From NCBI RefSeq assembly GCF_024502345.1, contig NZ_JALDNN010000003.1: a stretch of 64,000 nt of DNA. The stretch is one strand, 5' to 3'. Shown piece after piece: positions 57,001-63,000 of this stretch; the first letter of the stretch is position 1, and each line of letters opens with the position of its first letter. The DNA is from Escherichia coli. Its GTDB lineage: Bacteria; Pseudomonadota; Gammaproteobacteria; Enterobacterales; Enterobacteriaceae. Position numbers: made by a program.

Positions 57001-60000
57001 CTCATCTACAACGCAGAGCAATGATATTTCTGAGCATCGTTATTTCAAACAATTATCAGTAGTGAAGTTTCCAGAATTTGTAAACTTTGGCTGCATGTAT
57101 GAACTTGTAGTTAATTGGTTGAATGGACGTAAAACGATCTTTAGCCCTTTCATGATAACCCAGACTGTCCATTTCGCCGATCCTTTAAAATTATCAAGAG
57201 AAAACGTCAGATATAAGGCAATTACTAACAAACAAGCCAGTATTCCAACAGTTTTGACGTTTTGTCCAAGATTAAAGGATATGGATAATGATTACATGAC
57301 GATAACACGCGAACTGGAAGATGGGGCTCGCCTCCTACACAGTTATCTGACATTTACTGTAATGGGGAATTCAGCAGTTGATGTTCAGTCTGCCGCAGAC
57401 CAGTTAAAATCATTTTATCTGGAAAGTCGTGTTAATGTTGCTGATGACTCGTACATAGTATTTCCCTCATTTGTTTCAAGCCTGCCGATGTGTAATGACC
57501 CAAAGACAATACTAGAACTGGATCGTTTTGAGGTCGTGAGTAATACTGGTGCTGCGCACATGACCCCCATATTTGGTCCTTGGAAAGGTAATACGGACAG
57601 ACCCGTACTTAACCTTGTCTCACGAGAAGGACAGCTGTTGGGGCTGGATATCTTCAAGACTTCTGCCAGCTATAACATGGTCGTTGGTGCAACGTCTGGT
57701 GCTGGTAAATCATTCTGGGTCGCATACATCATTAATAATTATCTAGGCGCAGGTCCGCGTTCTAATAATCTGATCCATTATCGAGATACTTTTGAGGGAT
57801 TCAAAAACAATTCTTATGATGCATTTGACCCTGATGGAGCCCAGATTTTCGTAGTTGATGTCGGACGCTCATACCAAGGTATTTCGGAACAATATACTAA
57901 TAGTCAGTTTATAGACTTTGGGAAAAAGCCTGATTTTACGCTAAATCCATTCGCATTTTTGACTGATGTGACTGTTGGAGAGCGTGTTTTTGATGAAGCA
58001 CCTGTCTTTAATGACGATTCAAATAATCATGATGATGATAAGGATAAAGTAGCCCAGACCATTATGGTTCTAAACCAGTTAAAAATAATGGCATCTGAAA
58101 AAGGAAATATTGACGATTTTCAACAATCGGTCATGCTGCAACTGATTAGTGAAGAATATAACGAATCACGCAAAGTTGGACGTACAGGCTCTATTACTGG
58201 ATTTGCGCGACGCTGTTCTAACCATGAAGATAAGCGTATTAAAGATATCGGTGACCAGTTGGGGCAATGGTGTGAAGGAGGGATTTATGGGAATCGCTTT
58301 ACAGAAAATCTCCCGCCAATAAATTTTGATAGCCGGTTTATTGTTCTGGAACTTGAAGAATTGAAGGGGACCCCACACCTTCAGACTGTCGTTCTGATGT
58401 CGATTATTCAGGCCGCTCAGCATGCAATGTTTATCAAGAAAGACGGACGCCGCCGGTTGTTCATACTTGATGAGGCATGGGAGTATATCCGTCCGGACAA
58501 TGCTTCAGGTTCCAGTAATCATTCAAATCAATTTTTCTCCTCTTTCCTTGAGGCCGCTTGGCGCCGATTCAGGAAAACGAACTGTGCCGGTATTTGTATT
58601 ACTCAATCCTTTGAAGATTACTTCACCTCATCGGTTGGTCGCGCACTAACGGCTAACTCGCCGTGGAAGATCATCATGAAGCAGGAAAAGGAAAGTATTG
58701 AAGCCATGAAGGTGAACAACTACTTCTCCACAACTGATGCGGAATATGAGCGTATGAAAAATATTCGAACGGTAAAGCGTGCATTTTCCGAGATGCTCGT
58801 ACGATTCGAAAATTTCCAGGAGATATGTCGCCTCTATGTAGATAGAAAAATGGAGCTTTGCTTTACGACTGACAGCACCGATCGTGGAAAACTATGGGAA
58901 ATCCAAAGCCGACTTGATTGCTCTTACGGCGAAGCAATTGAGATTCTGTACGAACAGGAAGTTGCGAGCAAATCAGCTGCCTGACGTTTTAAGTTACTGG
59001 TTACCTCATTTTGTTTTGACTGAGGTATCCAGTACGTCTTTGAAGTAAATAGTTTTTAGCTGTCATTGCCTGCCCTCCCCCGAAATAATAGCCCGGGTTA
59101 AGAATATCTAGCTCGGATTAAGTCCTCTCAAACCGTCATACATGAAATTCGATTCCTTTTTCATTCTTCTTTTGAAGGTGAATGAATATGATGAAATTTA
59201 CTCCAGAATTATTCTCCCTACCAGGCTTTTGCTGTGAAGTTAATCAGATCAGGTATTATGTTTTGGGTACAAGAACCAACCAAGGTGGGTGTGGTTTTTG
59301 TATGGCAGATGCAAACATCGTTTTTACGGTTATAATAAATAACCATTATATAGATGAATTTATCGTTTTTTCTTTTAAGTCTTTGAAATAATTGGATCTA
59401 ATATCTAGATGATGGTTGTATAAACTATACGTTAATTAGATTTGAGAATGCAACTGTGATGCGATGCGTAGATATTATTAAGGTGAGTGGTTTGTTAAAA
59501 CAACCAAAAAAACAAGTAAGATCAGGTCTTATCTCCATAATAACTTAACCATCTAACTTTCTGGTTGGAATAAGAAACCATTTTAAGCTTATTCAATAAC
59601 GAAATTTAACCACTTGAATCGACTGACCATGGAGGAAAGCTGGTCGTGTCCCGTGGCATTTAACCCCCTTAATCGCCAGACCATGGAGGAAAGCTGGTTG
59701 CTTACCGTGGCATTTAACCCCCTTAATCGCCAGACCATGGAGGAAAGCTGGTCGTGTCCCGTGGTATTTAACTCCCTTAATCGCCAGACCATGGGGGGAA
59801 GCTGGTCGGGTACTGTGGCATTTAACCCCTTAATCGGCAGACCATGGAGGGATTATTGCCGGGTACCAGGCCATTTAACCACTTACTCGTCTGTACACGA
59901 TGGGATGCTGGTCGCGTAGCGCGGAATTGCTCCCCTATTCACCAGTTCTTTGCTAAAGGAAAGCCAGTCTAAAAGGTTTTCCGGCCAAAACTTTTTTTGT

Positions 60001-63000
60001 TTCACTACAGTTATTCGTCCTTCCGTTCAGCGTGATAAAATATACAAAAACGTAGAGGTAACCCATAAAAGTAAAAGAGCTTATAGACCAGCTTAAAAGG
60101 CTCGACCCGGATGCGTATGTAGTAGTTGCTGGATTTGAAAACCAGTGTACTGGACACGTGGCTGAAGCAGATACCATTAAAGAATGCATGACAATTCCTG
60201 TACGAGCGGACAGCATGTCAGGTGACCGTACGCTTGCAAAAGATGGATCACCTTCAGTCTAGTTGAGGGGGGGAGATGACTACCGCACGGAATACTTCGT
60301 TAGTGCAATAGACGACACGGATGAATTGGCCTAATTATACGAATTGCCAAAAAACTCTCTTATTGTCAATTGGGGGTATGGGCAATTCATATTGATTGCC
60401 AAATATTTTTTGGGTATTCGGGATGTCCTAACAACAGGATTTGCCGAATACCCTATTTTTTTGCCAAATATTTCGTCATTCTAAGTCGAGATCCAGGCCG
60501 AATATCTTTTAATCTAATCCACTCAATAGACAGATTCTGGTGGGATACTTATTGTGTACCGTCGTATTAAACCCACTTAACCGCTAGGGCGTCACGTTGT
60601 CCTGTCTGCAAGCCGAGGCAATTTCCCCTTTAGCCAATGACCACGGTGCCTGCTGGTCGGGTACCGTGGGATTTAACCCCCATAATCGCCAGACCATGGA
60701 GGCAAGCTGGTCGGGTACCGTGGCATTTAACCCCCTTAATCGCCAGGCCATGGGGAGGCTGGTCGCGTAGCGTGGCATTAAACCCTTTAATCGCCAGGAC
60801 ATGGGGTCATGCTGGTCAGGTACCGTGGTATTTAACTCCCTTATTCGCCAGACCATGGGGAATGCTGGTCGCGTATCCTGGCATTTAACCCCCTTAATCG
60901 CCAGAGCATGGCGGGAAGCTGGTCGGGTACCGTGGGATTTAACCCCCTTAATCGCCAGACCATGGAGGAAAGCTGGGCGTGTCCCATGGAATTTAACCCC
61001 CTTAATCGCCAGACCATGGAGGAAAGCTGGTCGTGTCCCGTGGCATTTAACCCCCTTAATCGCCAGGCCATGGGGAGGCTGGTCGCGTAGCGTGGCATTA
61101 AACCCTTTAATCGCCAGGACATGGGGTCATGCTGGTCAGGTACCGTGGTATTTAACTCCCTTATTCGCCAGACCATGGGGAATGCTGGTCGCGTATCCTG
61201 GCATTTAACCCCCTTAATCGCCAGAGCATGGCGGGAAGCTGGTCGGGTACCGTGGGATTTAACCCCCTTAATCGCCAGACCATGGAGGAAAGCTGGGCGT
61301 GTCCCATGGAATTTAACCCCCTTAATCGCCAGACCATGGAGGAAAGCTGGTCGTGTCCCGTGGCATTTAACCCCCTTAATCGCCAGGCCATGGGGAGGCT
61401 GGTCGCGTAGCGTGGCATTAAACCCTTTAATCGCCAGGACATGGGGTCATGCTGGTCAGGTACCGTGGTATTTAACTCCCTTATTCGCCAGACCATGGGG
61501 AATGCTGGTCGCGTATCCTGGCATTTAACCCCCTTAATCGCCAGAGCATGGCGGGAAGCTGGTCGGGTACCGTGGGATTTAACCCCCTTAATCGCCAGAC
61601 CATGGAGGAAAGCTGGGCGTGTCCCATGGAATTTAACCCCCTTAATCGCCAGACCATGGAGGAAAGCTGGTCGTGTCCCGTGGCATTTAACCCCCTTAAT
61701 CGCCAGGCCATGGGGAGGCTGGTCGCGTAGCGTGGCATTAAACCCTTTAATCGCCAGGACATGGGGTCATGCTGGTCAGGTACCGTGGTATTTAACTCCC
61801 TTATTCGCCAGACCATGGGGAATGCTGGTCGCGTATCCTGGCATTTAACCCCCTTAATCGCCAGAGCATGGCGGGAAGCTGGTCGGGTACCGTGGCATTT
61901 AACCCCCTTAATCGCCAGGCCATGGGGTGGCTGGTCGCGTAGCGTGGCATTTAACCCCCTTAATCGCCAGGCTATGGGGAAGCTGGTCTCGTAGCGTGGC
62001 ATTTAACCCCCTTAATCGCCAGGCTATGGGGAAGCAGGTCGCGTAGTGTGGCATTTAACCCCCTTAATCGCCAGGCCATGGAGAAGCTGTTCGCGTAGCG
62101 TGGCATTTAACCTCCTTAATCGCCAGGCTATGGGGAAGCTGGTCTCGTAGCGTGGCATTTAACCCCCTTAATCGCCAGGCTATGGGGAAGCAGGTCGCGT
62201 AGTGTGGCATTTAACCCCCTTAATCGGCAGGCCATGGAGAAGCTGGTCGCGTAGCGTGGCATTTAACCCCCTTAATCGCCAGGCCATGGGGAAGCTGGTC
62301 GCTTAGCGTGGCATTTAACCCCCTTAATCGCCAGAGCATGGCGGGAAGCTGGTCGGGTACCGTGGCATTTAACCCCCTTAATCGCCAGGCCATGGAGGAA
62401 TGCTGGTCTCGTACCATGGCATTTAACCCCCTTAATCGCCAGGCTATGGGGTAATGCTGGTCGGGTACCGTGGGATTTACCCCCCTTATTGCCACATCTA
62501 TGGAGTGATCCTGCTATGTCGGAAGATTGGTATTGTTGATACTTAAGAGGCTTTTGGAAGACTTCAATGAACTGCCAATTGAAATTCAATAATGCAGATA
62601 TTCCAAAATCTAAGAAAAGAATACAGAACGTTAGCGTAATAATAGAATTAAGGTTACTATTAAACGCATAACGCTAAAGTATACGCATTATGCGTAAAGT
62701 TTACGTATATACGTTTAATTTCACTATTTAGGTAAAAGGGATCGGAAGAGAATGAATCTAATTGATAAGATCGCCCTTGTCGGTCAACGCATGAAGAGCG
62801 AGCAGATCTCTCTGAAAGAGTCATTATTGGTCTCTTCGAGGGTTTCGGTATCGGATGATAGTGTAGACGGTGTTGATCGCCTAATCTATAACCACTGCTT
62901 GAATAAAAAAAATCTGTCAGATTTTTTTGGTAAATCTCGCGTAACTTTTAACAAAATCTTAGCGGATCTTGAAGAAAAAGAACTGGTTGGTGCTCCTATC

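Follow-up and report, generated by a model that had tools for sequence, protein, structure and literature searches.

The locus considered here is a tandem repeat array lying between the conjugation gene trhC and the partition gene parA in a 64,000-nucleotide stretch of Escherichia coli DNA (the window; contig NZ_JALDNN010000003.1 of assembly GCF_024502345.1). Its closest described counterparts are sopC of the F plasmid, parS of P1 and P7, parC of R1, and the Par1 region of R27. The sopC centromere consists of 12 tandem 43-bp repeats spanning 0.5 kb, each harboring an inverted repeat for SopB binding. In the annotated record of P1, the right arm of parS comprises A2 (ATTTCAA), a G, and A3 (GTGAAAT), the latter overlapped by B2 (TCGCCA), while the annotated P7 parS reads ATTTCAG-G-CTGAAAT-TCCCA. 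Schumacher and Funnell reportedly found in 2005 that the helix-turn-helix of P1 ParB binds the A-boxes and its dimer domain the B-boxes. The parC site of R1, which belongs to a type II system, is a repeat centromere preceding its partition operon and expresses incompatibility (a title cited in PMC10954446). In R27, Par1 is reported to be functional and the major stability determinant (Lawley & Taylor 2003, as summarized in PMC4489591 and PMC13245405).

The window belongs to an R27-like IncHI1 plasmid and represents its Tra2 region, with the array occupying the interval from trhC to parA. The array is most likely the ParB-bound Par1 centromere (parS) of this plasmid. A preliminary description of this DNA had proposed a centromere-like or incompatibility site for the adjacent type Ia parA, and that proposal is supported by the invariance of a short core, the co-variation of this core with the predicted recognition helix of ParB, a P1/P7-like layout, and the homology of ParB to P1 ParB. 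Its position also supports this assignment, as the array adjoins a type Ia parAB operon and no other repeats are found downstream of parB. Rather than a new kind of system, the array is a long allele of a locus also found in R27 and pHCM1. The trhC–parA region of these two plasmids (Par1; Lawley & Taylor 2003, J Bacteriol 185:3060) has the same locus, unit, core, two-block layout, and spacer, but 28 and 22 good sites, respectively, compared with 40 in the window; the comparison with IncHI plasmids that had been recommended at the outset recovers the same array with fewer sites.

Units were counted by anchoring on the most conserved 25-mer and then aligning the units. This segmentation yields 42 units of 51–54 bp (about 2.3 kb), with 26 distinct unit sequences among the 42, organized as follows.

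59582–59903, + strand: repeat block A, six units of 52–54 bp (Tandem Repeats Finder, unit alignment, core scan)
60544–60648, + strand: left end of block B, with one or two decayed units, 60544–60597 and 60598–60648 (alignment)
60649–62506, + strand: repeat block B, 35 units of 51–54 bp, the proposed parS array (Tandem Repeats Finder, alignment, conservation profile)
60718–61895, + strand: 320-bp block repeated exactly as a higher-order unit, 3.7 copies (lag-320 self-match perfect over 858 bp)
about 61927–62290, + strand: sub-array in which 52-bp units follow a higher-order period of three units, 156 bp (spacing table, lag-156 exact match of 113 bp)

Four units of block A have a good core, the two outer ones being degenerate, and the block is followed by a decayed partial unit that extends to about 59945. 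The decayed unit at 60563 mismatches the core at 6 of 25 positions. Tandem Repeats Finder places block A at 59604–59850 (54 bp x 4.6 copies, 87% matches) and block B at 60652–62488 (54 bp x 34.6 copies), and it detects the 320-bp period of block B with 5.8 copies, 93% matches, and a score of 2899. The 320-bp super-unit consists of six units (54+51+54+53+54+54 bp) of the types GHIJKL, and the unit-type string of the window reads ABCD / EF(GHIJKL)x3.5...W. The two-block 54-bp array of the preliminary description is thereby confirmed, with 42 units at 59582–59903 and 60544–62506, and so is its exact six-unit super-unit, which it had placed at three copies or more.

The core of the block B units is (TGGC)ATTTAACCCCCTTAATCGCCA(G). 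Within the IncHI1A units the stretch TGGCATTTAACCCCCTTAATCGCCAG is invariant, while the other ~28 bp vary more. All 42 units carry a dyad-type site, ATTTAA-N5-TTAAT plus CGCCA, in head-to-tail direct repeats. Allowing at most four mismatches from the 19-nt core TTAACCCCCTTAATCGCCA, 40 sites are found, all on the + strand, and the 19-nt core does not occur outside the array within the window. The array has a G+C content of 55–57%, compared with 33–46% in the flanks, and harbors only two GATC sequences. NcoI sites (CCATGG) occur 29 times, and an octamer one mismatch away from Chi (GCTGGTCG versus GCTGGTGG) is found in 26 units in one orientation. No consensus for Chi, IHF, or DnaA is present in the array, the IHF pattern WATCAANNNNTTR being absent from both strands. 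Promoter and terminator scans return 4 promoter-like sites and 1 terminator, no more than the 6.1 and 5.3, respectively, expected from shuffled sequence. No Rfam match is obtained at E <= 0.1 and the units abut without unique spacers, which argues against a structured RNA or an array resembling clustered regularly interspaced short palindromic repeats.

The core is not restricted to this plasmid. In R27, ATTTAACCCCCTTAATCGCCA occurs 28 times at a spacing of 52–54 bp. A pNDM-CIT-like plasmid, whose ParB is 83% identical, has 11 copies at 54 bp with a diverged spacer, and an IncHI2 plasmid (ParB 71%) has 11 copies within 249-bp repeats in two blocks. In a non-IncHI Citrobacter plasmid (L008, NZ_CP056220; ParB 72%), seven copies at 56 bp lie directly upstream of parA, and parAB is flanked by hypothetical open reading frames (ORFs), with no tra genes. 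The 21-bp core is identical in R27, the pNDM-CIT-like plasmid, and the IncHI2 plasmid, and that of the Citrobacter plasmid differs at the second base only (ACTTAAC...). The ParB proteins of these core-sharing plasmids are about 71–100% identical, whereas spacer sequence and period (52–56 or 249 bp) differ. The constancy of the core while period and spacer diverge points to selection on the 21 bp and not on the whole unit. In every lineage compared, the sites share one orientation relative to parA. A symmetric TGGC...GCCA dyad was also considered as the core and was dropped, since the left TGGC is not kept in the pNDM-CIT-like and Citrobacter arrays; the conserved element is therefore asymmetric, with a B-box on one side only, as in P1. 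No equivalent of the left-arm B1-A1 boxes is conserved across the lineages. An isolated inverted copy of the core, ACTTAACCCCCTTAATCGCCA, is found at 2314 (–) of the Citrobacter locus L008, approximately 4 kb upstream of the seven-unit array, and could serve ParB as a secondary site.

Among 100,044 species-representative genomes, the exact 19-mer is found in five enterobacterial arrays, mostly at a spacing of ~249 bp as in IncHI2. Its only other occurrence is in a Streptomyces cahuitamycinicus contig (NZ_POUC01001015, 381 bp, coverage 0.86; L018 197–215). About two chance matches are estimated for a database of that size, so this occurrence is probably contamination or chance.

When ParB is only 46–51% identical, the core becomes AACAACCCCNTTGTTCGC(AG/CA). 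A Providencia plasmid (ParB 51%) harbors AACAACCCCCTTGTTCGCCA in single copies downstream of parB, and a weaker version of the site precedes parA. In a Klebsiella pneumoniae IncHI1B/IncFIB plasmid (NZ_CP106887, L007; ParB 46%), the core is AACAACCCCNTTGTTCGCAG, and 36 units of 66 bp form a 2.36-kb array upstream of parA (L007 3560–5919) with higher-order periods of 259/325 bp, while 3.4 further units are located downstream of parB (L007 9194–9415). This array resembles that of the window in its homologous ParAB, its size (2.4 kb), its position and orientation, and its higher-order periods, and its core likewise parses into an A-box, an inverted A-box, and a B-box (AAACAAC, CC, CGTTGTT, CGCAG). 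It differs in the core sequence, the 66-bp unit, the extra copies past parB, and the lack of a trhC neighbor. It has the appearance of an independent giant centromere, in a family of plasmids that matters clinically. The Klebsiella locus lies among several genes for 800-aa proteins with Ig-like domains.

The change in the core is accompanied by a change in ParB. In the ParB alignment, the predicted recognition helix is GISHVSVSKR in all plasmids with the TTAA core and GISTESVRKR or NIGIESIRKR in those with the AACAA core, as expected if ParB reads the core. ParB is homologous to P1 ParB by several measures. It matches the P1 ParB–parS crystal structures 1zx4 and 2ntz over residues 150–327 (phmmer, E 4e-17), a sequence search of the PDB returns P1 ParB chains and Shigella VirB, and its C-terminal domain corresponds to Pfam PF08775. 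It is 27–28% identical to P1 and P7 ParB over ~90% of its length, and its matches to TIGR00180 and PRK13698 are below cutoff, yet significant. The protein encoded beside the array is thus assigned as a P1 ParB homologue on sequence similarity. A GSRRR nucleotide-binding motif (arginine patch, GxRRxR) is invariant in the ParB alignment. ParA, with 417 aa, has the size of a large type Ia Walker ParA, is matched by the NCBIfam ParA/RepA/SopA families, and finds Vibrio ParA2 (7npd, E 6e-33, residues 66–396) as well as P1 and P7 ParA (3ez2/3ez9) in the PDB. ParA, a large Walker-type protein with an N-terminal extension, and the ParB/Spo0J-family protein, with its arginine patch, helix-turn-helix, and dimerization domain, both have the features of a type Ia ParABS system.

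By analogy, the array can be described as built like F sopC from boxes of the P1 parS type, with a P1-type ParB. Like sopC, it belongs to a type Ia system and consists of head-to-tail units, each with one dyad site for a ParB-family protein, in copies beyond need. Its position upstream of parA contrasts with that of sopC, which follows the B gene, and it further differs in containing higher-order repeats and an internal unique spacer and in being accompanied by a ParB that resembles that of P1. It is also about 3.5 times the size of sopC, with ~42 units of 51–54 bp (2.3 kb) compared with 12 units of 43 bp (0.5 kb). The unusual size noted in the preliminary description thus stands relative to sopC, but it is a standing feature of IncHI plasmids and not a peculiarity of the window. 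With P1 and P7 parS, the core shares its layout, namely the A2-A3-B2 arrangement, and its B-box hexamer is identical to TCGCCA of P1. However, the A-boxes are ATTTAAC/ATTAAGG instead of ATTTCAA/ATTTCAC, and one extra base stands in the central gap. The IHF site and the left arm (B1-A1) of P1 parS have no counterpart in the array, and the P1 and P7 sites are present in a single copy downstream of parB, compared with ~40 copies upstream of parA here. R1 parC, in turn, is bound by a ribbon-helix-helix protein, ParR, and comprises 10 direct repeats of 11 bp flanking the parMR promoter. The R1 promoter is embedded in the repeats, whereas the candidate promoter-operator palindrome of the window is outside the array.

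Several observations weigh against assigning the array as the Par1 centromere. It lies upstream of parA, while P1 parS and F sopC are downstream of parB, and it is devoid of the IHF consensus found in P1 parS. The 8-nt identity with P1 parS (AATCGCCA) is expected by chance ~0.1–0.2 times per comparison by the analysts' own estimate. The co-variation of site and helix comprises two or three states and thus effectively one or two evolutionary events. Salmonella Typhi pHCM1-like plasmids apparently persist with only 4–6 sites, which makes an individual requirement improbable for most of the 40. Finally, the assignment is a comparative one throughout.

If the array is the Par1 centromere, each unit of 51–54 bp would hold one 21-bp ParB site, ATTTAAC-CC-CCTTAAT-CGCCA, in which an A-box and an inverted A-box are followed by an abutting B-box, TCGCCA. 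Dimers of the P1-like ParB would read the A-boxes via the helix-turn-helix and the B-box via the C-terminal dimer domain. The GSRRR motif suggests that ParB probably loads at the core sites and spreads from them. The ~40 sites would nucleate a single, very large partition complex, which ParA-ATP on the nucleoid would place at mid-cell and quarter-cell, while ParA would repress the parAB operon at a separate 61-bp palindrome by the promoter. Since the array would titrate ParB, it is expected to act as a strong, Par1-specific incompatibility determinant. Lengthening and shortening could occur by unequal recombination or slippage, both between units and between 320-bp super-units, making size a variable trait and not a fixed requirement. 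The anatomy of the array, its pattern of conservation, the protein homologies, and the variation in copy number are observed, whereas ParB binding, centromere activity, and incompatibility are inferred from sequence. The identity of the core in IncHI1A, pNDM-CIT-like, and IncHI2 plasmids further suggests that their Par1 systems should cross-react. Such cross-reaction would fit the definition of the IncHI subgroups by DNA homology inside one incompatibility group (PMC6764697).

The number of good sites varies widely, with 40 in the window and 29, 28 (R27), 23, 22 (pHCM1), 16, 6, and 4 in seven other IncHI1A plasmids, which justifies the caution on copy number voiced in the preliminary description. 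The gap between trhC and parA measures 3767 bp in the window, 3126 in R27, 2812 in pHCM1, and 2918 in NZ_CP044968. The difference from R27 is 641 bp, i.e., the window corresponds to R27 plus two 320-bp super-repeats. The GHIJKL block is present in 3.5 copies, compared with 1.5 in R27, and the unit order is otherwise the same; the 40 sites, as opposed to 28, result from these two extra copies. The array thus varies in repeat number, in steps of whole units and super-units. By megablast, the region is found in 284 plasmid records (IncHI1A in those whose type was inspected), and all 284 carry the array. The same array length is found neither among the seven other IncHI1A loci nor among the top-listed PLSDB records. 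In three S. Typhi pHCM1-like plasmids (NZ_CP029948, NZ_CP029937, and NZ_CP029939; L010–L012), only 16, 6, or 4 sites are left, an IS421 element is inserted in the array near parA, and IS1 bounds the other side, replacing trhC. IS26 is found in the array region of E. coli plasmids and IS21 in that of Citrobacter, Enterobacter, and E. coli plasmids. The region either tolerates or attracts disruption and large deletions.

It is possible, if doubtful, that only a few units form the centromere and that the remaining copies are a near-neutral satellite generated by unequal crossing-over, the giant size being functionless. Such a satellite is compatible with a centromere and concerns only the meaning of its size. 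It would account for the range of 4 to 40 sites among IncHI1A plasmids, for the exact 320-bp copies, which indicate a very recent duplication and by two of which the window exceeds R27, and for the IS26, IS21, and IS421 insertions that are tolerated in the array region of other plasmids. A single 43-bp sopC unit, moreover, was reportedly sufficient for mini-F partition in the work of Biek and Shi in 1994. However, multi-copy arrays with four different periods (54, 56, 66, and 249 bp) occur in separate lineages, for which recurrent selection is a better fit than drift, and the cores are intact in nearly all units while the spacers vary, implying purifying selection or rapid homogenization acting on every copy. 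In at least the 249-bp and 66-bp forms, the DNA between cores bears no obvious resemblance to the 54-bp unit, suggesting separate expansions, and the occurrence of large arrays with different unit lengths in several lineages weighs against pure neutrality. An unlikely further reading is that array size is under drive-like selection, in which plasmids sharing a ParB specificity compete for ParB and for partition slots on meeting in a cell, those with more sites win, and expansions recur independently. If so, bacteria would have a counterpart of centromere drive and of satellite higher-order repeats, and the shared core would be the molecular basis of the mutual incompatibility that defines IncHI across subgroups.

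Other explanations concern the function or the existence of the array itself. Instead of being the segregating site, the array could mainly serve regulation or titration, as a ParB sink governing free ParB and the expression of the par operon, or as a ParB-coated roadblock that shields the constitutive parAB operon from read-through of the thermoregulated Tra2 (trhC) operon, a role suited to its location exactly between the end of the tra operon and the par promoter. The terminator scan finds no clear terminator after trhC, and parA and parB are expressed at both temperatures while many tra genes are thermoregulated (PMC7366339). This appears improbable, as no other candidate parS is found near parAB in IncHI1, the Providencia relative with one or two sites has them at the expected place of a centromere, and the Citrobacter plasmid L008 keeps its array although its parAB has no tra neighbors. 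Binding of another protein (a host factor, H-NS/Hha/Sfh, or a Tra regulator), or a recombination hotspot acting via the near-Chi octamer, is less probable still. Within IncHI1A, the spacer elements GCTGGTC and CCATGG are conserved and GCTGGTCG, a single position off Chi, recurs 26 times in one orientation, but the near-Chi and CCATGG motifs are IncHI1A-specific, and the spacer elements are not conserved in the pNDM-CIT-like array, which has GCTGTCCG instead, or in the Citrobacter array, while the ParB-type core is kept. Being lineage-specific, the near-Chi octamer was rejected as the feature under selection. Changes in the core go with changes in ParB and not with the host, and the G+C content of the array, higher than that of its flanks, is the opposite of an H-NS target. 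With no Chi, IHF, or DnaA consensus in the array, the earlier suggestion of a recombination hotspot or host-factor array is disfavored. There is a yet smaller chance that the array or its length is an assembly artifact. Three exact 320-bp copies are prone to miscounting by assemblers, sister S. Typhi assemblies differ by 0.5–0.85 kb at the array, and the length in the window is unmatched in the other IncHI1A loci inspected and the top-listed PLSDB records. However, all 284 matching records have the array, R27 and pHCM1 among them, and its lengths differ by clean multiples of a unit or super-unit (641 bp versus 2 x 320); its existence is therefore not in doubt, only the exact count. R27 and pHCM1 are early references that were Sanger-sequenced independently. 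Finally, the chance that the repeats encode a repetitive protein and that ORFs within the array are real genes is negligible. Hypothetical proteins are annotated automatically inside the array in many records, but the called ORFs vary between records, and the mixture of 51-, 52-, 53-, and 54-bp units breaks any frame and thereby rules out such a protein. An absence of stop codons in several frames, as first described, holds locally (longest open stretches of 145–201 codons) but not over block B, in which each of the six frames has 23–31 stops; the accompanying view that the ORFs are artifactual is borne out. The differing hypothetical-protein coding sequences annotated inside the array (L001 6615–8607, L009 5603–7299, and L013 1115–3329), some with WP_ accessions, look like annotation artifacts that have spread into protein databases.

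The features surrounding and interrupting the proposed centromere are as follows.

56303–58984, + strand: trhC, encoding a TraC-family conjugative ATPase of 893 aa (ORF; homologous records annotate IncHI-type conjugal transfer ATPase TrhC)
59946–60543, + strand: unique spacer of 0.6 kb splitting the array (sequence comparison, translation, repeat search)
62659–62719, no strand assigned: 61-bp imperfect palindrome just upstream of parA (30-nt arms, 77% complementary)
62752–64000, + strand: 5' part of parA, encoding a type Ia Walker ATPase of 417 aa in full (homologous-locus translation, NCBIfam and PDB matches)

The Tra2 block ends ahead of the array with trhC, and parB sits beyond the end of the window, 3' of parA, in agreement with the placement of the array between a traC-family gene and a type Ia parA in the preliminary description. 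In R27 and pHCM1, the gene order is trhC, array, parA (417 aa), parB (335 aa), four small genes, and parM. In IncHI1, the DNA past parB has a terminator-like hairpin only, with no repeats, and no parC-like Par2 repeat is found upstream of parM in R27. A 20-bp direct repeat in two copies, AATATATAGCCCGGATTAAG, is located at 59084–59122, ~100 bp 3' of the trhC stop codon, and is also present in R27. Replication iterons were considered as well; the neighbors of the array are trhC and parA, no rep gene is adjacent, and the core is not reused in the 64-kb window. The incC repeats required for R27 stability belong to RepFIA, a different element (PMC4853401), and are ruled out as an equivalent of the array, being RepFIA iterons elsewhere on the plasmid.

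The 61-bp palindrome overlaps a 20-bp repeat of 2.3 copies (62664–62709, Tandem Repeats Finder). Its block ACGCAT...ACGCATTATRCGTAAAGT...ATATRCGT is also kept in IncHI1B-, IncHI2-, and Citrobacter-type loci, for a total of four lineages. It is a likely candidate for the parAB promoter-operator and ParA autoregulation site, apart from the array, as judged from this conservation. No strong sigma-70 promoter match is called at the palindrome.

The spacer has a single difference from R27 across its whole length, and its left ~60% (59946 to about 60290) is identical to pHCM1 except at that R27-variant position. The ~620 bp between the blocks, previously described as unique, are indeed unique but not random filler, being near-identical in R27 and in the compared part of pHCM1. 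A 64-codon open frame at 60062–60262 (+), within 60053–60265, IKVKELIDQLKRLDPDAYVVVAGFENQCTGHVAEADTIKECMTIPVRADSMSGDRTLAKDGSPSV*, is preceded by a Shine-Dalgarno-like AGAGG and begins with ATA, with no canonical start. The ATA is shared by R27 and pHCM1, so the frame is either what is left of a gene long caught in the array or a small gene with non-canonical initiation. At 60327–60473, the spacer contains a cluster of three 25-nt copies of a TTGCCAAA-type repeat, 52 and 45 bp apart, and TTGCCAAATATTT is present twice. An 18-nt inverted repeat (60412–60429 / 60436–60453) and a terminator-like hairpin (60381–60400) are also observed in the spacer. This part of the spacer may bind another protein or act as a terminator.

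No description of the array is found in the literature searched, the original R27 partition papers lying outside the reach of that search. Papers on R27 are said to mention direct repeats near the par modules, and Gabant et al. reportedly mapped an IncHI1-specific incompatibility determinant in 1993. Within the literature in reach, the 21-bp core with its P1-like A/B layout, its identity across IncHI1 and IncHI2, the parallel 66-bp array of Klebsiella, and the range of 4 to 40 copies all appear to be undescribed.

IncHI plasmids carry multidrug resistance in typhoid Salmonella as well as mcr and carbapenemase genes in Enterobacterales, and they rely largely on Par1 for their stability. Assigning the centromere to a defined 21-bp ParB site would offer a target for incompatibility-based curing in anti-plasmid strategies and would predict which IncHI subgroups cross-interfere. 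The array explains the spurious hypothetical proteins that automatic annotation places in this region and, as a fast-evolving repeat-number marker, could be used to subtype outbreak plasmids. With 4 to 40 sites, IncHI1A plasmids provide a natural series for relating centromere size to partition. Current models of partition stand, and the sopC/parS paradigm would be extended to a very large, higher-order-repeated form.

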